Source: Candidatus Nomurabacteria bacterium (GTDB lineage Bacteria; Patescibacteriota; Minisyncoccia; Phycocordibacterales; UBA918). From it: a stretch of 64,000 bases of DNA. The notes beneath the pieces are model-generated. The model was not told where the DNA came from. It was given only the letters and a program-made list of their open reading frames with translations, and did no database searches. Made by a program: the position numbers and the translations under genes. Shown in pieces: positions 2,866 through 47,151 of this stretch. Numbering within the stretch: the first letter of the stretch is position 1; every line of letters starts with the position of its first letter. Location of the stretch: contig JACKGE010000001.1 of the NCBI GenBank assembly GCA_020632155.1, forward strand, positions 220,011 through 284,010. The letters are read 5' to 3'.

Positions 2866-3858
2866 TTACAAACCAACGGCATTTTGTATATGCCCATAGG
2901 CCTCTGCACTAGCTACGCGGCCGCGTGGTGTGCGCTCGAGGAGGCCTTGGCGAATAAGGTACGGCTCAATGACATCCTCAATTGTAGCTTGTTCCTCACC
3001 GGTCGCCGCGGCGATGGTGTTTAGGCCAACCGGACCACCACTGAATTTGTGGATGATCACTTCCAAGACGGCGCGGTCAGGGGCACCGAGACCCAATTCA
3101 TCTATCTCAAGAAGCGCGAAGGTGCGCTCTACTACATCGGTGTTTATTGGACCATTTTCGAGCTGCGCGAGGTCACGACAGCGCTTGAGGAGATAGTTTG
3201 CTGTGCGCGGCGTAGCGCGACAGCGACGCGCAATGTCAGTGAGGAGTTCGTCAGTAATACTGGCTTCCAATAGACTGGCTGAGCGCTTTAAGATCTCAGC
3301 TATCTCGCTTTCGCTATAGAACTCTAGCCGGAAAGTACCGCCGGAAAAGCGTGAGCGAAGCGGGGAAGAAAGAAGAGAGATACGGGTAGTGGCGGCAACG
3401 AGTGTAAATGGCGGTAGTTCAAGCTGTACCGTTCGTGCTGACGGCCCTTTACCAATGATAATATCGAGTACCCCTGACTCCATGGCTGGGTAAAGTACCT
3501 CCTCGATGCTCTTGCTAAGGCGATGGATCTCATCAATAAAGAGCACATCTCCGGGGGAAAGGTTAGTGAGGATGGCGGCAAGGTCACCCACCCGCTCAAT
3601 AGCTGGGCCTGAAGTGACGCGCATATTGGTGCCCAGCGTCTTAGAGATAAGATGGGCCAAAGTGGTCTTACCAAGCCCCGGTGGCCCATAGAGAAGGATA
3701 TGTTCAGCAGCATGGCCGCGCTGCTTAGCAGCGGTAAGGAGAATACGAAGGTTTTCTTTGGTCTTTTTCTGGCCGATGTACTCGTCCCACGAGTGGGGGC
3801 GGAGGGTTTGATCGAGATTGCTGGCACTGTCTTTGGTGAAATTCGGCGTGTCGGTCAT
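2866..3858 (-). CDS. ruvB: Holliday junction branch migration helicase RuvB
   Basis: LLYGPPGLGKTTLA Walker A in the AAA+ region, and a C-terminal winged-helix region. The ORF track begins at 3906 (in-frame extension); the likely start is the M of MTDTPNF at about 3858. Confidence 0.9.
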   Translation of the reverse strand: MTDTPNFTKDSASNLDQTLRPHSWDEYIGQKKTKENLRILLTAAKQRGHAAEHILLYGPPGLGKTTLAHLISKTLGTNMRVTSGPAIERVGDLAAILTNLSPGDVLFIDEIHRLSKSIEEVLYPAMESGVLDIIIGKGPSARTVQLELPPFTLVAATTRISLLSSPLRSRFSGGTFRLEFYSESEIAEILKRSASLLEASITDELLTDIARRCRATPRTANYLLKRCRDLAQLENGPINTDVVERTFALLEIDELGLGAPDRAVLEVIIHKFSGGPVGLNTIAAATGEEQATIEDVIEPYLIRQGLLERTPRGRVASAEAYGHIQNAVGL

Positions 3859-9756: not shown

Positions 9757-9886
9757 TAGGATCATTTTTTAAATAGGGTTGAATTCGGAGTTTTCAACCT
9801 ACCACAAAACCATTTACAAAAAATGAATAATGTGTTATATTATTAGATAAGTGTGGCACCCGTCATACTACATTAGGGAGATCGAA

Positions 9887-10180
9887 ATGAATAAGATCAT
9901 CGTTCTTGCTGCTGCGGCAGCTCTCGCGCTTTCGGCTCGCACCGCCACCGCCGCCGACTACCTCGTGCAGGTGTCGACGACCGACGGAAAGGCACCCCTT
10001 TCTGTGACCATTCCCGGCTTCCAGGTCCAGAAGAAGGGGACCTTCAACTGGAACGGAAAGCGCTGGCGGAAGATCGTGGCGCGTGGCCCGGGCGTCCCTG
10101 CCAAGGTGTGCGATCACCAAGGCCGGTGTGTCCGTCTCACACGCAGTCCTCAGGGCGCTTACTCGGGCATCATGCAATGA
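9887..10180 (+). CDS. GC-rich small secreted protein (hypothetical)
   Basis: Internal ATG after an AGGGAG RBS gives MNKIIVLAAAAALALSARTATA signal peptide. About 62% GC versus about 40% in the flanks. Own terminator. Confidence 0.6.
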   Translation: MNKIIVLAAAAALALSARTATAADYLVQVSTTDGKAPLSVTIPGFQVQKKGTFNWNGKRWRKIVARGPGVPAKVCDHQGRCVRLTRSPQGAYSGIMQ

Positions 10181-10181
10181 C

Positions 10182-10214
10182 CCTCGTTCATGGGCGCAGC
10201 CAGCTGGCTGCGCC
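10182..10214 (+). terminator. rho-independent terminator
   Basis: GGGCGCAGCCAGCTGGCTGCGCCC hairpin followed by a T tract. Confidence 0.65.
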
Positions 10215-10386
10215 CGCCTTTTTATACTATGTCCAGACCTGATCAAAGTTTCAGGGTAGTTGTTTTGAGTGTAAAATTTTAAGCAGAAGGTCCTTGATAA
10301 AAGATGTACATAAAGGTATAGTGCACGCACTTTTGCTAACGTATCAACGAAAGTCGTACTCTCGTATGGTAATATACTAAGGCATC

Positions 10387-10459
10387 CGCCTGTAGCTCAG
10401 TTGGTAGAGCAGCGGCCTTTTAAGCCGACGGTTCGGAGGTTCGAGCCCTCCCAGGCGGA
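10387..10459 (+). tRNA. tRNA-Lys (anticodon TTT)
   Basis: Cloverleaf folded by hand. Acceptor CCGCCTG/CAGGCGG, D-arm GCTCAGTTGGTAGAGC, anticodon loop CTTTTAA, T-arm GGAGGTTCGAGCCCTCC. No encoded CCA. Confidence 0.8.
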
Positions 10460-10460
10460 C

Positions 10461-11291
10461 ATGAAGTCCTTCAAACAACAATGTATTGAGTTGCGAAAGA
10501 AGGACCATACCCTGAATGAAATAGTACAAATTACTGGTCGAAGTAAAACGACAGTGTACTTTCATATTAGGAACATTCCTCTAAGCAAACAAAAGCGAAA
10601 AAAAATAAGTGAAGCGACCCGATGGCGTGCCCTTCGAGTTGCTGCTGCTCGCAAAGGAAAAGCCTTGCGACCGTTCAAGCCATTTCAAAGCTGGACACCC
10701 GAACTCGTTCTATTAGTTTCCCACCTTATGTTTGACGGGGAAATAACCAAATCAAAGTGTCGTTACCATAATAGAAGTGCGGCCCTGATAAAAAGGGTGG
10801 AGGACTTAATGCAGCTTGTGTACGATTACAAGGGAACAAAAAATACCGATACTACAAGCGGTGTTGTTACCGTAAGTTTCCATAACGTAGAACTTGAAAC
10901 ATTTTTGAAAAGTAAATCAAAAGAACTGCTAAAAAACATTCATGTTTTTTCGAGATCTAAACAGACAGAATTCCTCCGCGCATTTTTTGATGACGAAGGA
11001 TGCATGGACGTACGTTTGAACAAAAGCCTGCGTCGTATTCGTGGTTATCAAAACGACCAAGAGATTCTTAAACTCGTAAAACTGCTCCTAAAAAACTTTG
11101 ATATTGAATCAAAACTCCGTAAACCTAATGAGGTTGTAATTTCTGGTAAGGAAAATCTACGGAAGTTTCAAAAGGAAATAAATTTCTCTAAAGGGGTTAG
11201 ACTAAATCCTAATCGGACGAATAGTATTTGGAAAAAAGATATCGAAAAAAGGGAGCTGTTAGATATTGCTATTAGATCGTACCAGATATAA
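10461..11291 (+). CDS. HTH-containing LAGLIDADG-type homing endonuclease-like protein
   Basis: ATG is immediately 3' of tRNA-Lys (the ORF-track TTG at 10401 would read through the tRNA). N-terminal HTH (LNEIVQITGRSKTTVYFHI). Two LAGLIDADG-like motifs (LVSHLMFDGEI and FLRAFFDDEGCMD). Confidence 0.5.
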   Translation: MKSFKQQCIELRKKDHTLNEIVQITGRSKTTVYFHIRNIPLSKQKRKKISEATRWRALRVAAARKGKALRPFKPFQSWTPELVLLVSHLMFDGEITKSKCRYHNRSAALIKRVEDLMQLVYDYKGTKNTDTTSGVVTVSFHNVELETFLKSKSKELLKNIHVFSRSKQTEFLRAFFDDEGCMDVRLNKSLRRIRGYQNDQEILKLVKLLLKNFDIESKLRKPNEVVISGKENLRKFQKEINFSKGVRLNPNRTNSIWKKDIEKRELLDIAIRSYQI

Positions 11292-11346
11292 CAAGTGTTC
11301 GACTTACGCAGTCGAACATTCGACAACTCAGTTGAGTTAAGAATAG

Positions 11347-11745
11347 TTAGAGCGGTAAATCAAACGCTGGTACTCCTGCACCGGTAACAAAGAGGGTTGT
11401 TGTGGCGCCAAGGAGTAAGAAATAAAACAATTTTTCTGGAATACTGGGATGAGAAAAATAGTTACGAAGCAGCAGTAATTTAATCGACATAGCAATCACT
11501 GCTAGAGCTGCATACTGGGTATGGGCGCCTGCAAGTAGTAGTAGCCCTAGCGACAGCTCACCAAGCGGTAATAGGGTAGCCACCAAGCGACCGTACGGAA
11601 ACCATGAGAGTCGCAGCACATGTTGTAATTCATCACGTACCCGCCAATGCTTGGTGCCAAGATGGAGCAGACAAACGGCGATAGTAACGCGCAATATAAA
11701 ATATGCAAACAAAGCGAGAAATTGAATGGGAAATGGATTCAGCAT
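11347..11745 (-). CDS. small polytopic membrane protein (DoxX-like?)
   Basis: Four hydrophobic helices. No clear motif. Confidence 0.35.
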   Translation of the reverse strand: MLNPFPIQFLALFAYFILRVTIAVCLLHLGTKHWRVRDELQHVLRLSWFPYGRLVATLLPLGELSLGLLLLAGAHTQYAALAVIAMSIKLLLLRNYFSHPSIPEKLFYFLLLGATTTLFVTGAGVPAFDLPL

Positions 11746-11762
11746 TACACAAATGGTAGCAT

Positions 11763-12239
11763 GTGAACGCTATGAAACGAGAGGTGTACGTGTATCTCGA
11801 TAACATCCGCAGTGCTCATAATGTTGGCTCCGTTTTTCGGACTGCTGATGGGGCTGGCGTGTGCAAGGTCATTCTTGGCGGTTATACTCCAGCCCCAATA
11901 GATCGCTTTGGCCGTACGCAGCCTGAGATCAACAAGACCTCACTTGGTGCATGCGAGTACATTCCGTGGCAGTCGCTTGACGATGTTGCTGGGGCAGAAG
12001 AATTGAGATGCCTTCAAAACAAAGGTTTTTCAGTCGTCGCGGTTGAGCAATCTGCTAGCGCTATATCACTTCATGAACTTGTCGTACCCAACAAAGTGGT
12101 CTATATATTTGGCAATGAGACCGATGGTGTCTCCAACGGATTGCTTGATCTGTCTGACACTGTTGTTGAGATACCGATGCATGGCCAAAAAGAATCACTT
12201 AATGTTGCAGTGACGGCTGGTGTGATATTATTTCATTAA
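11763..12239 (+). CDS. SpoU/TrmH-family RNA 2'-O-methyltransferase
   Basis: SPOUT motifs: N-terminal ...NVGSVFRTADGAG, then FGNETDGVS and a C-terminal knot region. Confidence 0.8.
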   Translation: MNAMKREVYVYLDNIRSAHNVGSVFRTADGAGVCKVILGGYTPAPIDRFGRTQPEINKTSLGACEYIPWQSLDDVAGAEELRCLQNKGFSVVAVEQSASAISLHELVVPNKVVYIFGNETDGVSNGLLDLSDTVVEIPMHGQKESLNVAVTAGVILFH

Positions 12240-12518
12240 TTGAAAAATATGGAATACGTTATAGAAGATTCAAAAGAAGGCTACTTTGATGTATACCAGC
12301 ACCAAAACGGCAAGAAGTACATTGTTTTAGAAGGCCTTGATCCAAGGCAAGTACACGAACAGGGGAAAATAGAGCAGTTCACTCGAGCTCATTACAACGA
12401 ATTTGCATCAGCCTACTGGTTATTGCTCTTCATGACGATGATGTACCTCCTTTGTACATACATTATTTCACCTCTTTGGTATCGAGTGCAGAGTCCCCAT
12501 CACGTTTCAGGGCAATGA
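12240..12518 (+). CDS. small hypothetical protein with C-terminal hydrophobic helix
   Basis: ORF only. Overlaps the 3' end of the convergent 12463-14193 gene by about 55 nt. Confidence 0.25.
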   Translation: MKNMEYVIEDSKEGYFDVYQHQNGKKYIVLEGLDPRQVHEQGKIEQFTRAHYNEFASAYWLLLFMTMMYLLCTYIISPLWYRVQSPHHVSGQ

Positions 12519-14193
12519 TCTCATTGGCATAGGTTGGAAGAAAATAGGTATCGGTTGTTTTATTGTACACAACGGTATTGGTGATGCGTTCCACAGCTTG
12601 GAAATATCCTAGGTGAGTGCCGGTGCGTGGTTCAAGTTCGTGCAAACGAGCGGCATTGGTTCCAACGTACAAACGGCCATTGATAACAGTCGGACTCGAA
12701 AAGATACGTGTTCCATCAACGAGTACATCAAATAGTAGAGACAAAGAGTCGAGATTGATAGCTCGAACGCGTTTGTCAGCAGCAGTAAAGTAAACAGTAT
12801 CTTGGTATATGTATGGGGTAGAGAATATGCCGAATTCACATTTATGGTGATGAACTAAATGTCCCGTTTTGCGATCCAAAATGTACAAAAATCCATCTAT
12901 TGCGCCAAATATTATGTAGTCGTGTTTTTGAGAGTATGTGAAACTTTCTTTTATGTCCCCATTACTGTAACCAATATGACCTGTCTCAGGTACGAAGTCA
13001 GCGGCACCGAAAGTAGTAAATTTCCAAAGCACATAACCGGTACGGGCATCATGAAGCCTCACCACTCCATCGTTGGAACCAATGACCACTTGCTTGTGCT
13101 CAGCAATATAGTGGGGAGAGCAATGAGTCATAGCCATGTGAGTACGGTCAATCCATTTAGGCTCGCCACTCGCTACATCAAGAGCAATAATGCCACCACG
13201 TTTATTTATCAACCCAAACTCAAGTCCAATAAAAACTAACCCAAGCTCTTGCGACACAGCAGGGGATGATCCTACCCAGTCAGCTTCAAAGCATATCCAC
13301 TTGACCGCTCCAGTATGTTTATCCAGACAGTACACATTTCCATCGTAGCTGCCAAATATGACCGTATTTTTATATAGTGCTGGGTTAGAGAAAATCGCTT
13401 TCTTTCTTTGTACACTCCCGACTTGATATTTCCAGGCTACCGAACCATCCGCTTGATTAATGGCCCAAAATGTCCGATTGTCCGAACCGAAGTATATCTT
13501 ACTGTCGTCAATCACTGGTTGTGATTTGTTAACTACCCATTCCAAACTTGGTTTTTCACTGCGGAATCCCCATAGGGTACTGAAAGGCATGGCGATAGAT
13601 TCAGGTACTGTTTTGAGGCGCGTTTGGGCTTCGTCGCCAAGACTGTCAGCAAACTCATCGAGCGTAAATAATGACCGCACTTTTATTCCTCTCTGGTAAA
13701 AGCGCTTGTAGTAGGACTCATCTTGGTATCTGAGTATTGCCCAAACGGTATCGACAGTGTACCCATAATACTCTAGTACTTCTATTTGTCGCCAAAAGGT
13801 ATTGCCAGAGTTTATAACATCGTCAACAAGAATGATCTTTTTGTGTTCCTCAAGGGAGCCTTCTATCATTCGGGTCATTCCAGTCTTTTTTCTAGACTTT
13901 CGTATAAAGACAGCGTTACTGTCGGCGTGTCCTTGGGCGTAAAACTTGTTCATTAAAGATGTGGCGAGAGGTACGCCAGCTATCTCCTGTGCACAAATTT
14001 GAAACGGGTACTCAGTGTGAAACTGTTCATAAAATATGCTAGCGATGATATCAGCAGCTTTGCCGTTCATTAAGATCTCTCGAAAATTGAATGTCCATGC
14101 ACTGGGATCAGTTTGCATGGCTAATTGACCGTTCGTGTTTTTGAATATCACGTGATCTTTAATGATATTTCTTAGTGTTTCCAAGTCACTCAT
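12463..14193 (-). CDS. phosphoribosyltransferase domain fused to PQQ-like beta-propeller repeats
   Basis: N-terminal type I PRTase PRPP loop (KIILVDDVINSGNTF). C-terminal repeated YxGSxDGxxYxxDxxTGxxxW blades. Confidence 0.55.
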   Translation of the reverse strand: MSDLETLRNIIKDHVIFKNTNGQLAMQTDPSAWTFNFREILMNGKAADIIASIFYEQFHTEYPFQICAQEIAGVPLATSLMNKFYAQGHADSNAVFIRKSRKKTGMTRMIEGSLEEHKKIILVDDVINSGNTFWRQIEVLEYYGYTVDTVWAILRYQDESYYKRFYQRGIKVRSLFTLDEFADSLGDEAQTRLKTVPESIAMPFSTLWGFRSEKPSLEWVVNKSQPVIDDSKIYFGSDNRTFWAINQADGSVAWKYQVGSVQRKKAIFSNPALYKNTVIFGSYDGNVYCLDKHTGAVKWICFEADWVGSSPAVSQELGLVFIGLEFGLINKRGGIIALDVASGEPKWIDRTHMAMTHCSPHYIAEHKQVVIGSNDGVVRLHDARTGYVLWKFTTFGAADFVPETGHIGYSNGDIKESFTYSQKHDYIIFGAIDGFLYILDRKTGHLVHHHKCEFGIFSTPYIYQDTVYFTAADKRVRAINLDSLSLLFDVLVDGTRIFSSPTVINGRLYVGTNAARLHELEPRTGTHLGYFQAVERITNTVVYNKTTDTYFLPTYANEIIALKRDGDSALDTKEVK

Positions 14194-14325
14194 AGTCGGT
14201 AGTATATATGCTTTAGTATTCTTGGTAAAATTAGTCTAACTATTCGCACAAAATGCACAGGCATTTCTTTACACCTCGGGTGTTTTTTTGGTGTAGCTCG
14301 CGTGATAATATGTCAGTAAATCAGT

Positions 14326-15621
14326 ATGGTTGCTCTTAAAAAGTTATTGTTAGCCACGGGTCTTCTTTTGTTCGTGTTTATTCTTGCTGTAGTAGCTTGG
14401 TATTACTATTACTCGGTTCAAAAGTCACCCCCTACCTCCATTAACAATAAACTGTATTACTCTAAGGTAGCGGAAGACATATTTGTCGCTGTGGAGAGTT
14501 TTAGAAACGATGGTGCTACTGATGAAGAATTCTTGCGTTTCACCGAAGAGCAAGTAAGACAGTTAGATATGGACACACTGTATCCAATAGATCGCGCTTG
14601 GATGGAGCTCTTACTGGCTAGAGCTAAAGAAAAGATAGACCGCGATGCTGCTCTCCTAGGCTATGCAAAAGTTTATAACAAACCCGAATATGAACAGTTG
14701 TGGACTGTTAGGGGCAGTGCTTTAGCCTCAGCCATGTTGTACGCAACTGAAGTTGGCTCACCCCGCTTGAGCTTAGCGGAAGCCAAAGAATTAATCTTTA
14801 AACCGGATTTGTTTGGTCGTGCAGTAGGGATTGACTCAATAGACGAACTGAATCAAATAGAGACTGAGGAGGAACTTAGGTTATTGGTAGGCATTGGATT
14901 AGAAAAAGCAAGCCCTAACATTTTGTCTAAAGCTCGTGAGATGAGACTCGAAGTGGAGAGCCTCTTGCTTCAGTCTGGGACTATTTTAGAAAGATTGTAT
15001 AATAGTAATGATTCTGTCGAATTTACCTCAACTGAGGCCACGTCTCATCTCAACGAACACTTAGAACTTCATGCACAATACGATAGTATCAAGGAGCGAG
15101 CTGACGCACTAAATGCCGCAATACCAATTGTTATTTCCGACCGAAGCATATACTCATCTGAGGTACTTTACACACTAAACTATTTACAGCGTCTCTACAC
15201 CCAGCTGTTGTTTGTCGGATATGATGTGATGCCGTCCATACTTAACATGCATGAGTACTTGTCCGTTTACATCAATTTACATGGTAATGAACATGAGTTT
15301 GCTTTAGAAAGAACAAATATTATTCGAGCCAGCTCGGACTATCGCTTAGTGTGTGCGTTGATACTAGTGAACCAACAAGAAGGTGGAGATACGAACAAAC
15401 TTTCGGCTGAGAATGTTCTATTGAAGAGCCTTTACGATCTTTCGGAAGATGAACTCAGAGCTAACGGCTCGTTGCTTATTGACGCCGCCAAGAGGCCATA
15501 TTATCCTTGTCACCAAGCCTTTTTGACTCTTGGCAGAGAAAACCAAAGATTTGCTGATTTTTTAGTAAAGAATGTCGGAGGTTGGTCGTATGAACAATTT
15601 ACTTCGCCTAAAACCAATTAA
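14326..15621 (+). CDS. TOMM-cluster partner protein A1 (N-terminal TM anchor; paralog of 16068-17384)
   Basis: One N-terminal TM helix. Conserved blocks shared with its paralog: SALASAMLYATEVGSP, ILYTLNYLQRLYTQ, DAAKRPY.PC. The stop lies 10 nt before the precursor peptide. Confidence 0.6.
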   Translation: MVALKKLLLATGLLLFVFILAVVAWYYYYSVQKSPPTSINNKLYYSKVAEDIFVAVESFRNDGATDEEFLRFTEEQVRQLDMDTLYPIDRAWMELLLARAKEKIDRDAALLGYAKVYNKPEYEQLWTVRGSALASAMLYATEVGSPRLSLAEAKELIFKPDLFGRAVGIDSIDELNQIETEEELRLLVGIGLEKASPNILSKAREMRLEVESLLLQSGTILERLYNSNDSVEFTSTEATSHLNEHLELHAQYDSIKERADALNAAIPIVISDRSIYSSEVLYTLNYLQRLYTQLLFVGYDVMPSILNMHEYLSVYINLHGNEHEFALERTNIIRASSDYRLVCALILVNQQEGGDTNKLSAENVLLKSLYDLSEDELRANGSLLIDAAKRPYYPCHQAFLTLGRENQRFADFLVKNVGGWSYEQFTSPKTN

Positions 15622-15631
15622 TGCCTAGATT

Positions 15632-15955
15632 ATGATAAAAAGAAAGACCAAAAAATTTTTATATATACTTAGTGCACTAGTTAGCGTAGTGTTTGGTTAT
15701 ACCATCGGCAAAGATCATGCCGATTATACAAACTTCACGGCCGGCGACGTTTTTTTCAAGGAAGCCCAGGCTGATGTCCCACCACCTCCTTCGTGTGGAG
15801 GGGACACATATAGCTGTGGCGGCGGTGATGATGATGGTGGCTGCGGTGGCTGCGGCTGTGGTTGCGGCGGCGGTGATGATCATGGGGGCTGTGCTTGTAG
15901 TTGTGGTGCACCAGACTGTGGTCAGTGTGGGTCACCAGGCGATGAGCTTTATTAG
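15632..15955 (+). CDS. RiPP precursor peptide 1 (microcin B17-like Gly/Cys-rich core)
   Basis: 107 aa. N-terminal K-rich segment plus hydrophobic leader, then conserved GKDHADYTNFT, then a core rich in G/C/D/S (11 Cys, runs such as CGGCGCGCGGG) ending in GDELY. Confidence 0.6.
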   Translation: MIKRKTKKFLYILSALVSVVFGYTIGKDHADYTNFTAGDVFFKEAQADVPPPPSCGGDTYSCGGGDDDGGCGGCGCGCGGGDDHGGCACSCGAPDCGQCGSPGDELY

Positions 15956-16067
15956 TTCAGTCTCCCTAAACACTCGAAGTGAGATTTACACATGTTGTTC
16001 CGTAGTCCCGATGATTACTATCATTGTTGTGACTAAGTGTACGTGTTAGCATGTCTATGGTCTGATT

Positions 16068-17384
16068 ATGCGCAAGGTTAATAACTTTTTACGTCTCCTC
16101 CTACTCGTCCTTGCTTTATTGATGGTAGTGGTGATTGTGGGTATCGGGTTACTCTTTTTAAAAACACAATCAAACCCTCCGTCAGTTAATAACAAAGAAT
16201 TATATCTCAGTGATACAATCGCCACACTCCTTCAGTCTGCTCAAGAAAAACAAAATGAAGGCGTACCACCTGAAGACATCTTAGCCACTGTCGAGGCTCA
16301 CCTTGCTGAAATTGATGTTCAAGCATTAGCGCCAGTGGATCAGGCTTGGATTGCTCTAGAATGGGCTAGAGTTCACGAACCGATTGATAGAGATATGGCG
16401 CTACTTGAATATGCACGAATATACAATGAACCATCATACGAGTCGTTCATGCCGGTTCGTAATAGTGCTCTGGCTTCAGCCATGTTGTACGCAACCGAAG
16501 TAGGTTCACCGAAGTTATCTTTTATAGATGCCAAACGATTTATCTTCGCACCCGATCTATTTGGCCATGTAGTTGGCATTGATACACAACAAGCCCTCGA
16601 CGCTTTAAAGAGTGATGAAGACCTGCGATTGTTAGCTAGTATCGGGCTGAATCTTTCCAGTGGAGGTATGTTATCGTCCGCCCGTGAGTATCGATTGCAA
16701 GTTGAAAGCTTATTGTTGAAGTCAGAGCATTTGTTGTATCAACTGTACGAAAAAGATACGTCGATTGATTTCATTCCGATTGTTGCACAGCAAAGGTTAG
16801 GCCAAGACTCCTCAATACAAAAACAATTCGAAGAAATCTTTGCTCAAGCAAATAGTATTTTGACGGATCTTCCAGCAAATATCGCACGTCGTAACGCATA
16901 TGTTTCAGACATTCTATATACTCTCAACTATTTACAGCGCCTGTACACGCAGTTTGTTTTTATAGGATATGATGCCCTCCCGCCACTTGATACCTCTAGA
17001 CAGCTACTCAATTCGTACGTAATTACTCATCAGGACGACCATTCCTTTGCTGCACAGCGATCAAATGTCATCTTGGCTAGTTCAAATTATCGCTATGCTT
17101 GTGCATTGGTGATTCGAGACGAATTGGACGGTCAAGAACAATCTGTAGACAGCCGGATCATACGTTCGTTACTCGACGACATACGACAACTTTCAGAAAC
17201 AGACATTGAGGCAGGCAAATCACTTTTAGCTGACGCTGCTAAGAGACCATATTTGCCTTGTTCATACGCCTCAGTGGTAATCGGGACCGTTTATGACCCC
17301 TCCTTTGCTGATTTTCTGGTCGATGAAGTAGGGACATGGAGTCGTGATCAGTTTATGACCCCTAACGATGGTGCTAGTATATAA
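16068..17384 (+). CDS. TOMM-cluster partner protein A2 (paralog of 14326-15621)
   Basis: Same architecture and the same conserved blocks as A1, at about 45-50% identity by eye. Translationally coupled to peptide 2. Confidence 0.6.
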   Translation: MRKVNNFLRLLLLVLALLMVVVIVGIGLLFLKTQSNPPSVNNKELYLSDTIATLLQSAQEKQNEGVPPEDILATVEAHLAEIDVQALAPVDQAWIALEWARVHEPIDRDMALLEYARIYNEPSYESFMPVRNSALASAMLYATEVGSPKLSFIDAKRFIFAPDLFGHVVGIDTQQALDALKSDEDLRLLASIGLNLSSGGMLSSAREYRLQVESLLLKSEHLLYQLYEKDTSIDFIPIVAQQRLGQDSSIQKQFEEIFAQANSILTDLPANIARRNAYVSDILYTLNYLQRLYTQFVFIGYDALPPLDTSRQLLNSYVITHQDDHSFAAQRSNVILASSNYRYACALVIRDELDGQEQSVDSRIIRSLLDDIRQLSETDIEAGKSLLADAAKRPYLPCSYASVVIGTVYDPSFADFLVDEVGTWSRDQFMTPNDGASI

Positions 17385-17391
17385 TTAAAGT

Positions 17392-17670
17392 ATGTTGCAA
17401 AGAAAAACAAAACAAGCCATGTATCTTGTGGGTGCCCTTGTGGGGATCGTGTTTGGATACGTGGTAGGTAAAGATCATGCAAATTACGCCAGCTTTACTC
17501 CAGAAGACCTCTTTTCGAGTGAGGCGAGTGCAGACACACCAAGTTGTGGTGGTGGAGATGCCAGTTGCACACCAGGTGATGACGATAGTTGTGCTGGTGG
17601 CGGTTGTAGTTGTGGTGACGCATGTGGCGGTTGTAGTTGTGGTGGAGGACAGGGTGACGAGCTCTACTAA
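17392..17670 (+). CDS. RiPP precursor peptide 2 (Gly/Cys-rich core)
   Basis: 92 aa. Leader homologous to peptide 1 (GYVVGKDHANYASFT). Core SCGGGDASCTPGDDDSCAGGGCSCGDACGGCSCGGGQGDELY, 8 Cys. Confidence 0.6.
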   Translation: MLQRKTKQAMYLVGALVGIVFGYVVGKDHANYASFTPEDLFSSEASADTPSCGGGDASCTPGDDDSCAGGGCSCGDACGGCSCGGGQGDELY

Positions 17671-17690
17671 TAACTCGTTCCAACCGAGGT

Positions 17691-18917
17691 ATGTTTTTTA
17701 AGGAAGAGTTTAGGTTAAGTTTTATTCTGCAAGTGGCCTTGGCAGCCCTAGTTTTTTGTTATTTCATGGTCTTTGCTGATTGGGTGTCTCGATCAGCCAT
17801 AACACTTGATTCGGTCATTAATCATGCAGCACTGTGCCCAACTTATTTCCAGTCGTGTGAAAGTCTATACTTTTTGCGTGCACTCCCTGATGGATATTCC
17901 CAGAGCATGTGGTACATGCTCTTGTTTGGGAGTCTTATAGTAAGCGCTTACTTTCTCATCTGCCGCCGGTGGAGTGAAGCCCAGTGGATACTTTTGCCCG
18001 CATATGTGTGGCATACGCTAAATGTATTTGTACTTACGTATTACGGTAGTGGAAATTATGAATACTACGTCTTTGTTTTCGGCACGATTCTATTCTTTTT
18101 TCCACATAAAGAATTCTTTTTAAAGCTGACCCTAGTTCTGTTCTACGTCATGTCTACTGCCGCTAAAATCCATCCAGCATGGATAGCAGGAGGATACTTC
18201 ACGAACATGAGCTTAGGCCTCCCTGTCTTTCCTGAGTGGTCAATACCACTATTTACTAATCTTGTTATTGTGATGGAAATGGTCGGGGCATGGTTTTTGC
18301 TTTCAAAACATCCCCTCGTGCAGCGCACGGTCCTTTTATTTTTTGTAATCTTTCACCTCTATTCCGGTGTGTTGGTTGAATACCGCTATCCTGCTACGGT
18401 GTTGCCCATGCTTCTTATTGCCTTTGGTCCATGGTACCGTTATCAAAAGCCGCCATTAGATAAGAAGTCTGTCATTGGTTGGACGTTCATCGGCTTACTG
18501 TGTATTTTGCAACTTACTCCAAAAATGGTTGTGGGTGACGAAAAACTCACTCTTGAGGCGAACAAGTACGGCCTCTATATGTTCGAGTCCAATCATCAGT
18601 GCATCGTATCGGCTGAGTATATCTACACCGACGGACACGTAGACACATATATGGAAGTACATAACAATCCTCGCTTCCGCTGTGACCCATACATGTTTTG
18701 GTATCGATTCAACCATGTGTGTGAACAGGACCCCCGTCTTTCTCGCATCGCTTGGACCTTTGACCACTCCATTAATGGCGACCCCTTCTTACGTATTGTT
18801 GACACTGATAACGCCTGCGACCTAGAATACAAACCTTTCTCCCATAATGAATGGATCAAGACGTATACTGACAACCCTGAAGTGATCGGTTGGCCGGCAC
18901 AAAATGATTATCACTAG
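17691..18917 (+). CDS. HTTM-domain (vitamin K-dependent gamma-carboxylase-like) multi-pass membrane protein
   Basis: About 9 TM helices in the first 280 aa plus a soluble C-terminal domain. The segment LRALPDGYSQSMWYMLLFGSL resembles the VKGC/HTTM block [24 protein letters not shown]. Confidence 0.45.
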   Translation: MFFKEEFRLSFILQVALAALVFCYFMVFADWVSRSAITLDSVINHAALCPTYFQSCESLYFLRALPDGYSQSMWYMLLFGSLIVSAYFLICRRWSEAQWILLPAYVWHTLNVFVLTYYGSGNYEYYVFVFGTILFFFPHKEFFLKLTLVLFYVMSTAAKIHPAWIAGGYFTNMSLGLPVFPEWSIPLFTNLVIVMEMVGAWFLLSKHPLVQRTVLLFFVIFHLYSGVLVEYRYPATVLPMLLIAFGPWYRYQKPPLDKKSVIGWTFIGLLCILQLTPKMVVGDEKLTLEANKYGLYMFESNHQCIVSAEYIYTDGHVDTYMEVHNNPRFRCDPYMFWYRFNHVCEQDPRLSRIAWTFDHSINGDPFLRIVDTDNACDLEYKPFSHNEWIKTYTDNPEVIGWPAQNDYH

Positions 18918-20061
18918 AAGCAAAAGACATACGATGCTATGCGCCTTTGTGTGTGGACTTTTTTTTGCGCTTAGTGGTAGTTATCTATACACACTCATTG
19001 CTAATAGAGCCGTTACACCCGAAGTGCGTCCGGTTGTGTATGATAGAGAGCAACTGGCTAACGGAACGATCTACACAACCCTTGGTAATCAACAGGAGTT
19101 CAATCAAAAGTATGCTCACCAGCGGCCATATTTATTGGAGCTGGCCGCAGATGGCACTTTGGTTTGGTCTGAGTCGACCGAGAGTACTCCATTTCATTAT
19201 CAACGACTACCTAATGGTACCAAGGTATACGCCCTACATGATATTGACAGCAAGCGGTGGTCTGCACACTGGCATGTAATAGAACCTGATGGCTCAAAAC
19301 ACATTGTTCAAAGCCAAGAAATTGACCATACTGACTTTCATTTTTTATTACCGACTCCAACTGGAGAGTTTTGGGTACCAGGGTATAGATTGCAAGAATT
19401 AGAAGGACAAAAGGTAGAGTCTTTATGGCTTGAGTTGCAGAATCAGGCAGGTGAGGTGATGCAGTCATGGGATAGTTTGTCACATGTGAGTTTAGATTCA
19501 ACGCAGGCCACAGAAACACGAAAATATTGGCTGGAGCACGATATCAATGATTATTTTCACGGTAACAGCGCCACTTACGCACTCGATGGTGCACTTCTCA
19601 TCTCGGCTCGCAATACCAACCAAATATACAAGGTAGACCCCCAAACCGGTGAGGTAGTTTGGAGGTTGGGAGGGAAGGACAGCGATTTCAATATAATAGA
19701 TGATCCTCTCGGTGGTTTTTCTCATCAACATACCGTTAGCCAGTTAGGAAACGGGAATATACTTCTTTTTGACAACGGCAATCTACACCAACCGCAACAG
19801 TCTCGCGTTGTAGAGTACCAGCTTGATGAAGAGGCGATGACCGCTACGTATGTTTGGTCGTATACCGAAGCTGGTCGGTTTTCGTACGCGGCTGGCTCAG
19901 CTCAGCGGCTACCAAACGGCAATACGTTCATTAGTTGGGGGCTCGAGGTTGATGAGTCAAGTGGTAAAGCCAAAATAACGGAGGTCTCTCCGTTGGGAGA
20001 GAGGGTGCTGGAGATTTTTTTTGCTCCTGAGGTATTTTTCTACGACGCCTTCAAGCTATAG
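18904..20061 (+). CDS. arylsulfotransferase (ASST)-like beta-propeller protein
   Basis: N-terminal signal/anchor. ASST-family blocks FHGNSATYALDGALLISARNTNQIYKVD..GEVVW and HQHT....GNGNILLFDNGN. Confidence 0.55.
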   Translation: MIITRSKRHTMLCAFVCGLFFALSGSYLYTLIANRAVTPEVRPVVYDREQLANGTIYTTLGNQQEFNQKYAHQRPYLLELAADGTLVWSESTESTPFHYQRLPNGTKVYALHDIDSKRWSAHWHVIEPDGSKHIVQSQEIDHTDFHFLLPTPTGEFWVPGYRLQELEGQKVESLWLELQNQAGEVMQSWDSLSHVSLDSTQATETRKYWLEHDINDYFHGNSATYALDGALLISARNTNQIYKVDPQTGEVVWRLGGKDSDFNIIDDPLGGFSHQHTVSQLGNGNILLFDNGNLHQPQQSRVVEYQLDEEAMTATYVWSYTEAGRFSYAAGSAQRLPNGNTFISWGLEVDESSGKAKITEVSPLGERVLEIFFAPEVFFYDAFKL

Positions 20062-20092
20062 AAAAACCGCCGACTACTGCCGACGGTTTTTG
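20060..20092. terminator. bidirectional terminator-like hairpin
   Basis: AAAAACCG...CGGTTTTT stem between convergent genes. Confidence 0.5.
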
Positions 20093-20116
20093 ATTGGACG
20101 GAGGCGAAGACCCGAC

Positions 20117-20440
20117 CTACTTGAAGACTTGGACTTGGTCGTCCTTCTCTCCATTTTTGTCTCGGGTCGAGAAGGTCACCTTATACTTCCCGCCGCCGAT
20201 ATCCTTGATGTTGATGGCGGCGCGGCCACCGGGCCAGCGTATCCGCCAACGGCCGTCCTTGACGCGGTCGGCCGTGTAGCACCGCCCCTTGTGGCAGTAG
20301 ATCGCTTTCTGGGCAGACACGACTCGCACCGAGGCGGCGCTGCCGTCGTTCCAGCGGCCGGAAGCTTTCTCACCGGCGGTTGCGGGAGCGGCTGCCAAGG
20401 CGGCAGCGATGGCAGCGACAACAAAGAACGCACGTTTCAT
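20117..20440 (-). CDS. GC-rich small secreted protein (hypothetical)
   Basis: MKRAFFVVAAIAAALAAAPATAGE signal peptide. About 63% GC. Sits between the ASST-like gene and sagB-like. Confidence 0.55.
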   Translation of the reverse strand: MKRAFFVVAAIAAALAAAPATAGEKASGRWNDGSAASVRVVSAQKAIYCHKGRCYTADRVKDGRWRIRWPGGRAAINIKDIGGGKYKVTFSTRDKNGEKDDQVQVFK

Positions 20441-20507
20441 GGGACTCTCCTTTCCCTATGTTGTGATGGTCAATTTATAACACAAATATATAATTTTTGC
20501 AACACGC

Positions 20508-21212
20508 TTAGTTTGAAAGAGTGAAAGTGTAGATTGGCTGTTCATCAAAAGGATCGAGCTCCAATACGTCGGTAATCTTTTCATCACGAAAGCCACCAAT
20601 AGGGCAGAAATGTAGGTTGGCCGTCTCAGCCGCTAAAGACAGATTTTGTCCAATATGACCTGCTTCTAGTAAGCAGAGATCATAAGCAAAATCAGAATAT
20701 TTTGGCGTATTTCGACTCCAGCGTGCGGTGAGAATTATGACTGCGAGTGCCTCGGTTTCGATGTCGGCTTTAAAGAGATCGTTAGTCGTTAGCTTTAGTG
20801 GCAACTCCCATAGTCTTTCCAAGACGTGCTCTTTGACTTGGTAATGGTACAGTGTTGGCCGAGCATCCGTCTCAAGCCGCGTACAAAGGTAGCATTCAAC
20901 GGGGTAAAAGGAACCGCCTGATGGGTATGGTCGGTGGTGATCCTTATGTTCTCGTAAGGCGAGACCAAACAGTGTTCCCAGTTGTTGGGGAGTTGGGTAG
21001 ATAGATGTGTCCGACCGGCGTCTTGACCGCCTCTTTTGTAGTAGTTCAACAAATGTATCAGTTGAAACGGGGTCTGGTAGTGGAATTTTTAGAAAACGGG
21101 GGTAGGTCTTACTCTGCTGTATTGCTGGCCAGAGTGATTCTGACGTGGCTGTTTTGCCTTTGTTAGTTCGGCGAATATATTGATGGATTCTAAGTGGCGT
21201 AAGGTTAAGCAT
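20508..21212 (-). CDS. SagB-type (TOMM) FMN-dependent dehydrogenase
   Basis: RRSRRR, YPSGGSFYPVECY and LLEAGHIGQNL..C.IGGF blocks typical of the SagB/ThcOx nitroreductase-fold family. The start is 9 nt after the ycaO stop. Confidence 0.8.
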   Translation of the reverse strand: MLNLTPLRIHQYIRRTNKGKTATSESLWPAIQQSKTYPRFLKIPLPDPVSTDTFVELLQKRRSRRRSDTSIYPTPQQLGTLFGLALREHKDHHRPYPSGGSFYPVECYLCTRLETDARPTLYHYQVKEHVLERLWELPLKLTTNDLFKADIETEALAVIILTARWSRNTPKYSDFAYDLCLLEAGHIGQNLSLAAETANLHFCPIGGFRDEKITDVLELDPFDEQPIYTFTLSN

Positions 21213-21220
21213 ATTGGTAT

Positions 21221-22669
21221 TTAAGCAAAAGGATGTGGGTAGGCTGTAAAGGGTGTAGGTAAAGATTGGTAACCAAATTTTTCTGGTACAGCGGATAGAC
21301 GTTTTCCCGTTACGTATGGTACACGTTCGTTTTGATGCATGGGTTGTAAATCAGGCATGACCACCATTTCAATATTCCAAGGAGACACGTTTCTTTTTGT
21401 TGAACCAACTGAGACTGAACATAGTTCGTAATTATTGTTCCTAGCCCAATTAACTATTCTTCGTAAATGATCACTCTCGGAGTCAGCCTCCCAGTTCTCG
21501 CTTGGGTTTGGTTCACTGGAGTCTGTTCCAGAAAGGAAGTACATATTACTAACTTGTTGAGGCTCAGCCCAGTAGTCCAATCGTTCAAGGTGGTTCAACT
21601 TCGACCCGTCTCTTTTTACAGATTGCTTGCCAGTACGAGACTGCCGATTCCTAATGGTTTGGCGTATGCGCAACGCTTCGAGCAGGGCTCCCTCAACGGC
21701 CGTACTCAAGCTATTATGCGCTTTAAGTCCTACCGTAAAAGCAGGAACATGTTCATGAGTGTCTTTGAGACTGGCACAAATTGCGTACGTTGGCGCATCT
21801 GTTACCATTCGAATTGCTGAAGGTTCAAGCTGGTATTTCTTGCACAACTCGAGTAGGCGTTGCAATTTTGGTGAAGTGTGAGCCAGATCAAGAAGGTTAA
21901 GTCTTGGTAACTTGAGTTGGTTGAGCCAAAGTATCATATAGGCATCACGTTCAATCACTTCTAGTGCTCCAGCAAGAACAGCTCCCTCACGTGTTGGCCA
22001 TGTTGCAAGACCGGTCGTAATCGGCATAAGGAGTATCGGCTCACGAGCGAGTTTTTTGTCACGGCAGCTATTGACCAGCTGGGCGGGCAAGTACAGCTGC
22101 TTCCCAGTGGTCCATGACTGACCCAAGGTCCAAGTGAATTTACTATCTGGAGCAAAAGAAAGCCGTCCATATTTTTCTCGTTGCTCTTTTGAGACGCCAG
22201 TTATTTGGTCCGGTGAGATGAACGAAATGGATTTTTTTTGCATCTCGTTTATGCTTGCGTACATTGGTTTTTTAAAATAGGAAGTGTCTTCAAACCATAA
22301 ATATCTTTCCACTGCTTCAGCCAAGGCAGCGATAAAGGCATCATAATCGCTGTCTATGGACATACCGCCGGCCCGTTGATTATCATGTGTGCCGCATGTC
22401 ACTGCCCAGTGGTATTGCAAGGGCTCATCATGGTAGCCAGTGATGGGACGATAGTTTTTTATTAGTTTGGCCTCAATCAGTTGTTGTGCTATGGAGAATA
22501 AAGGAATGAGATCTGTTCTTCCATAGGGTATATAGTTAGCATCGACTGTAACAGACGCATTAAAGTATTTTTCAATAAATGTTATCAAGGCTAACTTCGC
22601 ATCATCCGAAAATCCTTGCCTTCGTTTCCTAATAATCTCCGTTAACAGTAACGTATCGTGCATGACCAA
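21221..22669 (-). CDS. YcaO-domain cyclodehydratase (TOMM D protein)
   Basis: AEAVERY, ITTGLATW and ALEVIERDA motifs (ATP/Mg binding, ExxERD). C-terminus YPHPFA, like the PxPxP tail of azoline-forming YcaOs. Confidence 0.85.
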   Translation of the reverse strand: MVMHDTLLLTEIIRKRRQGFSDDAKLALITFIEKYFNASVTVDANYIPYGRTDLIPLFSIAQQLIEAKLIKNYRPITGYHDEPLQYHWAVTCGTHDNQRAGGMSIDSDYDAFIAALAEAVERYLWFEDTSYFKKPMYASINEMQKKSISFISPDQITGVSKEQREKYGRLSFAPDSKFTWTLGQSWTTGKQLYLPAQLVNSCRDKKLAREPILLMPITTGLATWPTREGAVLAGALEVIERDAYMILWLNQLKLPRLNLLDLAHTSPKLQRLLELCKKYQLEPSAIRMVTDAPTYAICASLKDTHEHVPAFTVGLKAHNSLSTAVEGALLEALRIRQTIRNRQSRTGKQSVKRDGSKLNHLERLDYWAEPQQVSNMYFLSGTDSSEPNPSENWEADSESDHLRRIVNWARNNNYELCSVSVGSTKRNVSPWNIEMVVMPDLQPMHQNERVPYVTGKRLSAVPEKFGYQSLPTPFTAYPHPFA

Positions 22670-22689
22670 TCGATTGTAACAGTATTATT

Positions 22690-23154
22690 TTGGGCCTACA
22701 AGATTCGGTGACAATTGGTAGTGACATGGCTACGCATGCTGGTTACAATGGTCTCTGTAGCATGAACAGACTTCCACCTTGTACGGTTTTATATCAAGGC
22801 AATTGTACCTTTTGTCGTTGGTGTATGAGACTGGTACTCAAAAACAGTCGAGAAGGGATGTTTACATTCATCCCGATTGAAAGTGAGGAGGGGAAGGCTC
22901 TCATTAAAGAGGGGTCTCTATCGATAAACCCTGAACATCCAGACAGTATTGCAGTATTAGTGTCTGACGAGAAGGTTTACTATAAATGGCAAGGTGGAGT
23001 AGAAATTGCTCGTCACACAACGTTTCCGTTTCGGTTGGTGTATTTTGTTGCGATGATGGTGCCGAGTTTTTTGGGAGATCGTATATATGACTGTATTGGT
23101 CGTCATCGGGCTCTGCTGTGTCGGTTGGTCCGATGTCGCCAAAGGCAGTCATAG
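22690..23154 (+). CDS. DCC-family (DUF393) thiol-disulfide oxidoreductase
   Basis: LYQGNCTFCRWC CxxC motif near the N-terminus and the downstream family pattern. The real start is probably the M of MNRLPPC at about 22762. Divergent from ycaO. Confidence 0.6.
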   Translation: MGLQDSVTIGSDMATHAGYNGLCSMNRLPPCTVLYQGNCTFCRWCMRLVLKNSREGMFTFIPIESEEGKALIKEGSLSINPEHPDSIAVLVSDEKVYYKWQGGVEIARHTTFPFRLVYFVAMMVPSFLGDRIYDCIGRHRALLCRLVRCRQRQS

Positions 23155-23207
23155 GAAAGGCCGCGAATCTTACTCGCGGCCTTATTGCAGGTTTCTACTG
23201 CTCCACC

Positions 23208-23573
23208 TTAGCGAAGATCTGGGTTTGGGTCAGTGCAGACGTCGATGAGGTATTTTCCGCTCAACCACTCGCCATCTAGGTGACCACTCACCTCCACCAC
23301 GTAACGGCAGGGCGTTTCGGGGAAGTCCAACGACAGCGTGTCGTTGTACCGGACTTCCGTACCGTTAAAGTCAACGCCCTGCCAAAGGTCATCGGCAGCA
23401 ACCTCGGGACGCAGCCGGACCTCTGTCCAGTTGACGGGCGTGTGGTTGGTGAAGACCACCCTAGTCATCTGTCCGTCATTGGTAGAGACGGTCGGTGTCG
23501 CCGCCAGCGCTGAGGCGGTTGCCAGCAAGCTGGCGATTATAGCGTGAAAGAACGATCTCATGATCTCCTCCAA
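23208..23573 (-). CDS. GC-rich small secreted protein (hypothetical)
   Basis: Signal peptide MRSFFHAIIASLLATASALAATP. About 62% GC. TTG or ATG start ambiguity. Confidence 0.5.
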   Translation of the reverse strand: MEEIMRSFFHAIIASLLATASALAATPTVSTNDGQMTRVVFTNHTPVNWTEVRLRPEVAADDLWQGVDFNGTEVRYNDTLSLDFPETPCRYVVEVSGHLDGEWLSGKYLIDVCTDPNPDLR

Positions 23574-23667
23574 AGACGATTAAGCGTACCGTTTACCGAC
23601 TTATATAATAGCACATTTTAATATTTTTGTCAAAACAAAACTTTGAAATAGTATAAAAAGAAAACCG

Positions 23668-23699
23668 GGCTGCTGGGAAGCAACCCGGTTTTGTCCGCA
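23668..23699 (-). terminator. rho-independent terminator after 23713-24060 gene
   Basis: AAAACCGGGCTGCTGGGAAGCAACCCGGTTTT hairpin with a T tract on the minus strand. Confidence 0.55.
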
Positions 23700-23712
23700 T
23701 GTCGCCGGCGGA

Positions 23713-24060
23713 TCAGAAGTTCATGAAGTGCAGGTGCGAAGCGACGACGTAGCGGCCGTCGAGTTCGACGAGGCCGAAACTGGCTCCACCCTCGCGGTGA
23801 GCCGTGCGGGCCGCCTGTTCGAGCAGTCCGATGTCGCTGTCGGGGTAGACCTGCATATGGCAGGCGCCGGCGGCGATGAGCGGCTCGAGGACCGACAGGA
23901 AGGCCGAATCGTCGGCCTCGGCCTGCAGGGACGGCGTATTCAGAGCCGACCCCATCAGAGCGCCGGCGTCGGTGACGTTGTCACAGGACACAATCTCGGC
24001 GGCCGCGGCGGGGAAGGCGCACGCGGTGACGATAAGAACGGATGCAAGAATCTTCTTCAT
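23713..24060 (-). CDS. GC-rich small lipoprotein / secreted protein (hypothetical)
   Basis: MKKILASVLIVTAC lipobox-like signal. About 66% GC. Confidence 0.5.
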   Translation of the reverse strand: MKKILASVLIVTACAFPAAAAEIVSCDNVTDAGALMGSALNTPSLQAEADDSAFLSVLEPLIAAGACHMQVYPDSDIGLLEQAARTAHREGGASFGLVELDGRYVVASHLHFMNF

Positions 24061-24192
24061 GGGGACCCCATTTGGTTGGTTTGATTCTGGCGATATTGCC
24101 GTTAGCTATACTACTACAAATAGGTAAAATGTCAACCTCAAAAAGGGCAGTTATACAATAACGTGATATTGGCTAGGCACAGAAAGGGTATA

Positions 24193-46266: not shown

Positions 46267-46332
46267 CAGTCTAGTGAGACCTACTGAGAGGGGTTAATAC
46301 CCCACCAATCTCAGTAAGTCTAGCAAAACAAT

Positions 46333-47149: not shown

Positions 47150-47151
47150 TA

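Follow-up and report, generated by a model that had tools for sequence, protein, structure and literature searches.

Small predicted exported proteins encoded by GC-rich genes around a RiPP island in a patescibacterial genome

Four short genes whose guanine-plus-cytosine (GC) content stands well above that of their neighbours lie around and within an island for a ribosomally synthesized and post-translationally modified peptide (RiPP) in a 64,000-nt stretch of DNA from a Candidatus Nomurabacteria bacterium. We call this whole stretch the window and the genes A (9887-10180, plus strand), B (20117-20440, minus), C (23208-23561, minus) and D (23713-24060, minus). The window lies on a 486,692-bp contig from a metagenome-assembled genome (MAG) within the candidate phyla radiation (CPR, or Patescibacteria) with H6783_* locus tags, and its mean GC is 0.484 (48.4%). 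The described systems closest to the four genes are islets of horizontal gene transfer (HGT) and phage "morons", gene classes with their own codon bias and GC at third codon positions (GC3), the rAID-1 clusters, inverton switches and, for the product of B, the calycin, avidin and lipoprotein barrels.

Like HGT islets and morons, A-D are monocistronic and marked off by a sharp compositional step; A adjoins a tRNA gene and has no counterpart in a relative, and B has a cross-phylum homologue. Unlike those systems, the window has no phage or mobile context, and both D and a gene pair for an SPFH/Band-7 lipoprotein and an NfeD-like membrane protein are vertically kept with their bias intact. Thus, atypical GC is no evidence of import here. 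With gene-specific classes of GC3 and codon bias, the locus shares a third-position excess that is restricted to a defined gene set and kept over long divergence. The differences are that the excess is unusually large, that it falls on envelope and exported genes and that the gene for ribosomal protein L19 is at most mildly shifted. Expression-linked selection for GC-rich genes was reportedly put forward by Raghavan, Kelkar and Ochman in PNAS 2012, and the biased gene conversion hypothesis is said to be that of Lassalle et al. in PLoS Genet 2015.

Switches of the inverton type are represented by fim, in which an invertible promoter is run by tyrosine invertases of the FimB/FimE type. A likeness to them is seen only at two loci of C and D relatives (contigs L011 and L020), where a recombinase of ca. 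190 aa stands divergent from an operon and 24-nt inverted repeats are present, with a promoter-like site in L011; these homologues occur in other bacteria only, and the window holds nothing comparable and no inverton-controlled operon. rAID-1 clusters likewise consist of small exported proteins with skewed GC, and relatives of C and D lie beside XerD-like, small tyrosine recombinases on mobile islands (compare bioRxiv 10.1101/471110). The window differs in having no recombinase, no immunity homology, no array of many co-directional genes and no intergenic motifs that recur, its genes being scattered, while the recombinase at the loci of the C and D relatives is divergent from the operon and only ca. 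190 aa long. Finally, the AlphaFold model of B (predicted local distance difference test score, pLDDT, 83) shows eight antiparallel strands forming a predicted barrel, and its best fold matches in the PDB are avidins, a bile-acid-binding protein and fHbp barrels, with template-modelling (TM) scores of 0.4-0.5; its likeness to avidin, FABP and fHbp barrels is no more than generic. It differs from those barrels in having no sequence similarity to them, a Foldseek E value of 0.1 or worse and no assignable ligand-binding residues.

Anatomy and composition of the four genes

The features of A-D are listed below in order of position; promoter-like sites and terminators come from a scan of a 15-kb region unless read by eye, and GARP is the glycine, alanine, arginine and proline fraction of the product.

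9813-9841, plus strand: promoter-like site of A, TTTACA-17-TATATT with TG, in an AT-rich spacer (scan)
9887-10180, plus strand: gene A, 97-aa predicted exported protein, signal peptide MNKIIVLAAAAALALSARTATA with predicted cleavage before ADY; GC 0.62, GC3 0.72, GC at second codon positions (GC2) 0.53, GARP 0.36
10191-10226, plus strand: intrinsic terminator of A: a stem of 11 bp, 9 of them GC pairs, followed by a run of T (scan)
10386-10460, plus strand: tRNA-Lys(UUU), 3' of A, inverted relative to the related CPR contig L016
20062-20092, no strand assigned: imperfect GC-rich hairpin 3' of B with A/T runs at its flanks (read by eye, not called by the scan)
20117-20440, minus strand: gene B, 107-aa predicted exported protein, predicted eight-stranded beta-barrel; GC 0.62, GC3 0.76, GARP 0.39
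20474-20502, minus strand: promoter-like site of B, TTGCAA-17-TATAAA with TGn (extended -10) (read by eye)
23157-23182, no strand assigned: perfect 10-bp GC-rich hairpin 3' of C, between C and a convergent DCC1-like gene (read by eye)
23208-23561, minus strand: gene C, 117-aa predicted exported protein with the C-terminal motif VC-x-D/N-x-NP-x-L-R/K; GC 0.57, GC3 0.70-0.71
23605-23633, minus strand: promoter-like site of C, TTGACA-17-TATTAT with TG, 11/12 (scan)
23661-23692, minus strand: intrinsic terminator of D: a stem of 14 bp, followed by a run of T (scan)
23713-24060, minus strand: gene D, 115-aa predicted exported alpha/beta protein with two invariant Cys and the motifs SLQ-x-x-AD and H-x-EGG; GC 0.65, GC3 0.82
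24108-24135, minus strand: promoter-like site of D, TTGACA-16-TAGTAT (scan)

By these features, A-D read as genuine, individually transcribed genes that are much GC-richer than their surroundings. The initial annotation had described small signal-bearing genes, each with its own ribosome-binding site (RBS) and terminator, and this was borne out by the promoters, the hairpins, a Shine-Dalgarno (SD) sequence 5-8 nt before each ATG and, read by eye in A-D and in all family members, putative signal peptides of n-h-c structure that in each of A-D end in AXA. Residues 1-20, the predicted signal region, have low AlphaFold confidence in the models of B and D. The promoter-like sites of C, A (10/12, TG) and D (10/12) are within the best four of the 27 in the scanned region, whose two strongest terminators belong to A and D, and the hairpin 3' of B is probably a bidirectional terminator shared with the convergent arylsulfotransferase-like gene. 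The GC1/GC2/GC3 pattern supports the frames given as coding. A was indeed found just before tRNA-Lys, at a distance of 205 bp, and B inside the thiazole/oxazole-modified microcin (TOMM) cluster next to sagB, flanked by the arylsulfotransferase-like gene and the SagB/YcaO pair. Two details had to be amended: the GC range of 60-66% holds for A, B and D and not for C, at 57%, and the gene placed at 23208-23573 exists but most likely starts at the ATG at 23561, which is preceded by GGAGGAG, and not at the TTG at 23573.

The compositional contrast itself is real and statistically clear. Background genes of the window have a GC3 of 0.47 (standard deviation, sd, 0.08) and the genes adjoining A-D ca. 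0.41-0.47; after correction for amino-acid content, the GC3 excess of A-D is +0.21 to +0.34 (z = 4.6-7.4). Windowed GC and GC3, which the initial annotation had proposed as a check, confirm the contrast, whereas the tetranucleotide signature is weak, being only ca. 1.8 sd below the null for ordinary genes, and not decisive. The codons in excess are G/C-ending, chiefly C-ending, with the NNR codons AAG, GAG and CAG enriched too. The step coincides with coding sequence (CDS) plus terminator, and the promoters sit in AT-rich spacers that resemble the surroundings. In A and B only, GC2 and GARP are raised as well, by ca. 2.4-3.7 sd (GC2 0.52-0.53 vs a background of 0.40, sd 0.05; GARP 0.36-0.39 vs 0.245, sd 0.04); C, D and the genes for the SPFH, NfeD-like and Bax1-I proteins are outliers in GC3 alone, with normal GC2 and GARP.

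The B locus is present in nine independently assembled contigs from different samples and assemblers, 99.8-100% identical to the window, and all contigs carrying B represent the same strain. Three of the nine (L001-L003) also span C, and L001 and L003 span all of D. This recurrence excludes for B, C and D a chimeric assembly, the possibility that the initial annotation had wished to see ruled out. A genome scan anchored on SpoU, which served only as a baseline, gave 61 other CPR loci (ca. 1 Mb); comparable GC islets with a small signal-peptide gene are almost absent from them, and no homologue of A-D was found there. Thus, the pattern is not a general CPR feature.

Inheritance of the GC-rich genes

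Homologues of A-D were sought by exhaustive phmmer searches with concatenated mature sequences against 1.8 billion cluster representatives, and family sizes are stated among 15 billion proteins. Relatives came only from these searches; in word-indexed searches B and D had appeared as orphans. Sequence searches of Pfam, NCBIfam, PHROGs and the PDB gave zero matches for A-D, and none of IMG/VR, GenBank phages and PLSDB yielded a relative.

The D family has six members, the five relatives being 31-38% identical to D, and a profile search added none. The lipobox-like VTAC of D is not conserved within the family. Four of the five homologues share contigs of diverged CPR relatives with homologues of the genes that neighbour D in the window. 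The gene order is SpoU, D homologue, homologue of a 570-aa protein gene in L021 and 570-aa homologue, D homologue, DoxX homologue in L085; in L083 the D homologue adjoins a homologue of the window's 385-aa gene, and in L084 one of its 500-aa LNT_N-like gene. The partner shared by the first two is, in the window,

24163-25875, plus strand: 570-aa membrane-anchored protein with no known family match, divergent from D

and the divergent pair, with 98-168 bp between the two starts, has been retained in three lineages. Flanking orthologues are 32-63% identical at these loci, which points to deep divergence. GC3 of the D homologue is nevertheless 0.83 in L021, where the flanks have 0.51-0.58, and 0.74 in L085, where they have 0.35-0.38, and the L085 gene, like D itself, has an SD context and a strong terminator. 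In proteins ca. 35% identical, synonymous sites would long be saturated, so a GC3 of 0.74-0.83 in three lineages is unlikely to be residual donor composition and appears to be maintained gene by gene. By its conserved neighbourhood, D is to be regarded as an old, fast-evolving resident of its locus, and its probable working partner is the 570-aa membrane protein encoded divergently from it. Its AlphaFold model (alignment of six sequences, pLDDT 82) is a small alpha/beta domain with no fold match in the PDB. Beside the D homologue, L021 carries further small exported genes (2741-3498) with GC3 of 0.71-0.83, among them one for a fragment of a YkuD L,D-transpeptidase and one for a Cys-rich product of 92 aa, which indicates that the class extends beyond the window's genome.

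The same deviation recurs in larger genes of the window:

52189-52977, minus strand: Bax1-I family membrane protein, the window's strongest GC3 outlier at 0.79-0.80, GC2 normal
59113-59589, plus strand: 158-aa membrane protein, GC3 0.76
60793-62252, plus strand: SPFH/Band-7 lipoprotein (60793-61782), then NfeD-like membrane protein (61794-62252), GC3 0.72 and 0.68

The eight genes with the largest corrected GC3 excess are, in descending order, those for Bax1-I, SPFH, D, 59113-59589, B, the NfeD-like protein, A and C, and all eight products are membrane or exported proteins as predicted. Of the further GC-rich genes named in the initial annotation, these (52189-52977, 59113-59589, 60793-61782 and 61794-62252) are true GC3 outliers, at 0.68-0.80. 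The gene at 48309-49553 (GC 0.53, GC3 0.54) is distinct only against its AT-rich neighbours beside a tRNA-Arg gene, and the coding status of 50755-50997 is uncertain. With SPFH as the anchor, a scan of metagenomes showed that the CPR relatives L087 and L093 conserve the SPFH/NfeD-like pair. In L087 (45% GC), the two genes reach a GC3 of 0.62 and 0.65, against 0.32-0.53 for every other gene of the 14-kb locus; in L088, the SPFH homologue has 0.77 vs 0.52. Judged from this conservation, the pair is vertically inherited in these relatives. Between A-D and the SPFH, NfeD-like, Bax1-I and 59113-59589 genes, the shifts in codon usage relative to background are correlated at r = 0.81 (0.40 within GC-ending and 0.61 within AT-ending codons). 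Since vertically inherited genes deviate in the same way, composition is not a reliable sign of transfer here, and the GC3 heterogeneity is in part a native property of the clade.

C has two clear relatives, P0017 and P0019 (30-37% identity), and a weaker match, the 428-aa repeat protein P0020. One of the two clear homologues is encoded in a related CPR contig, L016 (PolA 76% and RuvB 88% identical), at a different position from the window site; it has a GC3 of 0.54 vs ca. 0.43 and adjoins a GC-rich gene for a small secreted protein of 101 aa (GC3 0.68). A homologue in a related CPR member weakens the case for import of C, which is probably wrong for this gene.

No relatives of A were found among the 1.8 billion cluster representatives, which makes it an ORFan. 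In L016, tRNA-Lys lies within ca. 50 bp of holA in the opposite orientation, and neither A nor the window's LAGLIDADG open reading frame (ORF) is present. That ORF, free-standing and combining a helix-turn-helix (HTH) domain with LAGLIDADG_3 as in homing endonucleases, occupies 10401-11291 and begins at the 3' end of the tRNA-Lys gene (10386-10460); a second free-standing HTH and LAGLIDADG_3 ORF (53449-54123) lies ca. 100 bp from tRNA-Val (53278-53351). The GC-shifted amino-acid content of A, together with its phyletic pattern (an ORFan whose site is empty in L016), makes lateral acquisition its best reading and a plausible one.

The sole homologue of B, P0015 (58-68% identity, depending on the alignment), is encoded on L010, a 2.3-kb contig binned to a Brucellaceae MAG whose locus tags (H6891) presumably come from the same study as the window MAG. 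The flanking VWA gene has GC 0.645 and GC3 0.92. The B homologue is a low-GC insert in this contig, outside any RiPP context, and is bracketed by direct repeats 465 bp apart:

L010 1455-1474 and 1920-1939, strand not given: direct repeats of 20 nt around the B homologue, CTTTTGTCAACAYGGCCTAG

The window's own B has its promoter and hairpin, and no flanking direct repeats or target duplications were found around any of A-D in the window. Cross-phylum transfer of B is well supported by the shifted amino-acid content and the phyletic pattern. Neither genome carrying B looks like the source.

Loci of C and D relatives in other bacteria and the surroundings of the window genes

C- and D-family members outside CPR-like contexts lie on islands of ca. 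47-49% GC in unplaced bacteria. On the 1-Mb contig L011, whose analysed stretch has 49% GC, the D homologue P0024 heads a tight three-gene operon for small secreted proteins on an integrase-rich island; on L020, the C homologue P0017 is the last of two genes in an operon. Both operons have a divergent neighbour, a tyrosine recombinase of ca. 190 aa, and the two recombinases, 44% identical to each other, both give weak, below-threshold matches to models of FimB/E-type DNA invertases. The 24-nt inverted repeats of the two loci (L011 9816-9975, L020 4094-4259) have a similar core and bracket 112-118 bp of intergenic DNA, at 9840-9951 in L011 and at 4118-4235 in L020, and the promoter-like site within the L011 segment faces the operon. 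By analogy, the arrangement resembles an invertible promoter switch and is a candidate for one. All assemblies show a single orientation, inversion not being observed, and the only hint of it is that contig L014 ends at the right repeat. Integron-like arrays were considered at both loci and rejected, as the genes overlap or abut as operons. A distant similarity may link A, B, gene 3 of the L011 operon and the 101-aa gene of L016 (hidden Markov model, HMM, E values of 4e-6 to 2e-3 per comparison, hhalign probability 13-26%); for B against the latter two the probability is 13-17%. We regard this as a lead only.

The TOMM-type RiPP island in the window comprises YcaO, a SagB-like nitroreductase, two Cys/Gly-rich precursor-like genes and the arylsulfotransferase-like gene, at 44% GC vs 49% in the flanks. 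Compared with L021 and L085, the window has a PQQ-repeat gene, the whole island, B and C between SpoU and D. The PQQ-repeat gene and the entire island take up 12240-23150, whereas L021 has SpoU directly beside its D homologue and L016 has SpoU followed directly by a Mur ligase gene that lies at 28.6 kb in the window. Judging from these comparisons, the island looks like an insertion at a rearrangement-prone site. The precursor-like genes (15632-15955 and 17392-17670) both end in GDELY, and each lies 3' of one of two paralogous genes of 431 and 438 aa. A 27-bp (9-codon) indel at 17597-17623, in the Cys/Gly-rich core of the second precursor-like peptide, separates strains that are otherwise 99.8% identical. 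One near-identical strain, KC722, is labelled "Ca. Kaiserbacteria".

Elsewhere in the window, an AT-rich block (46195-49600, 39-43% GC) with genes of 255, 180 and 414 aa that match no family directly follows tRNA-Arg(UCU). This block, in which no integrase was seen, may represent an integrated element. Another tRNA-Arg gene, with the anticodon GCG, lies at 33844-33918.

Explanations for the compositional contrast

The explanation we favour, and hold to be rather probable, is that A-D encode separately transcribed, small Sec-exported envelope or surface proteins whose GC3 bias is gene-specific and heritable, A and B having in addition been acquired laterally. Near-consensus promoters, good RBSs and terminator-like hairpins would give strong expression, and the products would act in the envelope or at the surface of the CPR cell. 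Two components of GC would then be superimposed. The first, a bias towards G/C-ending and mainly C-ending codons, would be common to A-D and to the SPFH/NfeD-like and Bax1-I genes and would be upheld by a persistent force, whether selection linked to expression and favouring GC-rich codons or mRNA, or gene conversion with a local bias; C and D would belong to this class and would not be un-ameliorated foreign DNA. The second, confined to A and B, would be the shift in amino-acid content towards GC-rich codons brought in by lateral acquisition.

Several observations weigh against this explanation. The D homologues in L083 and L084 do not stand clearly above their short flanks in GC3, and the GC3 excess of SPFH is small or absent in AT-rich relatives. 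For proline, A-D use CCC and the GC3-rich envelope genes CCG. The gene for L19, the only ribosomal protein encoded in the window, has a GC3 of 0.51 (0.58 in its conserved domain), so simple translational selection is not obviously the source of values of 0.7-0.8. The B homologue in L010 has a GC of 0.53, below both its host contig and B, and neither direction of transfer fits simply as a result. A, moreover, is carried by one contig only and has no independent assembly support: the KC722 contig stops in holA before reaching it, and other assemblies break at ca. 9.4-11.7 kb.

Expression-linked selection fits the strong promoters, and biased gene conversion is the main alternative to it. We consider it unlikely that the GC3 excess arises from GC-biased gene conversion at recombination-prone loci, where fast-evolving surface genes are exchanged within populations, rather than from such selection. 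The proteins D, C and B are fast-evolving and exported, a type on which diversifying selection often acts; codons ending in G and codons ending in C are both enriched, the NNR codons included; and the region from SpoU to D is rearranged, with insertions. SPFH and Bax1-I, however, are conserved housekeeping-type membrane proteins and no obvious recombination hot spots, GC2 is normal in C, D and SPFH, and the strains sampled are all 99.8-100% identical.

The initial annotation had proposed repeated acquisition from a high-GC donor, for example an actinobacterial host. That A-D, along with the other GC-rich genes, were each imported recently and independently and keep the residual GC of one or more such donors, perhaps the host of an epibiont, we hold to be improbable. 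Lateral transfer into Patescibacteria, membrane-related genes included, is documented (PMC12455944). In its favour are the sharp steps matching CDS plus terminator, the GARP-rich proteins of A and B, the absence of A from L016 and the position of the sole B homologue on a high-GC contig binned to Brucellaceae. Against it, the promoters are AT-rich and resemble their surroundings, the B homologue is in turn an insert of atypical composition in L010, no high-GC homologue of A, C or D exists among the 15 billion proteins, and D, in its conserved neighbourhood, and the SPFH pair have both kept their high GC3 in relatives (saturated ones in the case of D), which refutes import for both. Among the usual signs of recent import, a distant, composition-matched donor homologue was not found for A-D, nor was any actinobacterial relative; composition deviates from the host, which does not discriminate since vertical genes deviate alike; and A is absent from the syntenic site of a relative, whereas D is present in L021, L085, L083 and L084. 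For D, the best matches are to relatives with similar GC, an outcome that the initial annotation had itself listed as contrary to its proposal. Repeated acquisition thus falls away for D and the SPFH pair, is weakened for C and stays plausible for A and B.

A function as "orphan immunity"-type protective proteins, drawn from a mobile pool and exported against envelope-targeting toxins or enzymes of neighbours, also seems a poor prospect. The proteins are small and exported and have conserved cysteines, members of the C and D families at other loci are neighbours of small tyrosine recombinases homologous to each other in integrase-rich islands, the B homologue sits in a repeat-flanked cassette, and skewed GC with recombinase association is typical of rAID-1 clusters (bioRxiv 10.1101/471110). 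None resembles a known immunity family or a Pfam, NCBIfam or PDB entry, however; the window has neither recombinase nor array, D is a conserved resident of its locus, and the L011 and L020 genes form tight operons and not cassette arrays with repeated intergenic motifs.

The term "morons" had been applied to A-D from the start, and being monocistronic with their own promoter and terminator they do fit its formal definition; prophage remnants or phage cargo are nevertheless very improbable, as no phage genes flank A-D, PHROGs and IMG/VR yield no match or relative and GenBank phages hold no relative of A. Assembly chimeras or high-GC contamination, for which the compositional contrast and the single contig of A are all that speaks, have practically no chance of being the explanation, being refuted for B, C and D by the identically embedded copies in independent contigs, and the junctions lie in intergenic promoter or terminator DNA with every gene intact.

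These results are a caution for composition-based detection of transfer in CPR genomes. Among the strongest GC outliers here are envelope genes of vertical descent and a gene long resident at its locus, so at least half of the set would be miscalled if transfer were judged by GC alone. They also describe for the first time three rare families of exported proteins, B, C and D, none of which has more than six clear members among 15 billion proteins. The B homologue on a Brucellaceae-binned contig offers a concrete starting point in the search for an ecological partner or a gene pool held in common. More tentatively, and with doubt, we suggest that the clade may keep, across deep divergence, a GC3-rich and mainly C-ending codon "dialect" for envelope and exported genes (the D family, SPFH/NfeD-like, Bax1-I and small secreted proteins), and that C and D, possibly with a B-like barrel, may form a linked surface set that the CPR would have in common with other bacteria and that would be switched by an invertase in the latter. 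If true, the proteins of this set would be exposed interaction or defence factors exchanged across phyla. To our knowledge, almost nothing is known about the surface or interaction factors of epibionts. The B, C and D families, which are common to the CPR and other bacteria, are reasonable candidates for such factors.

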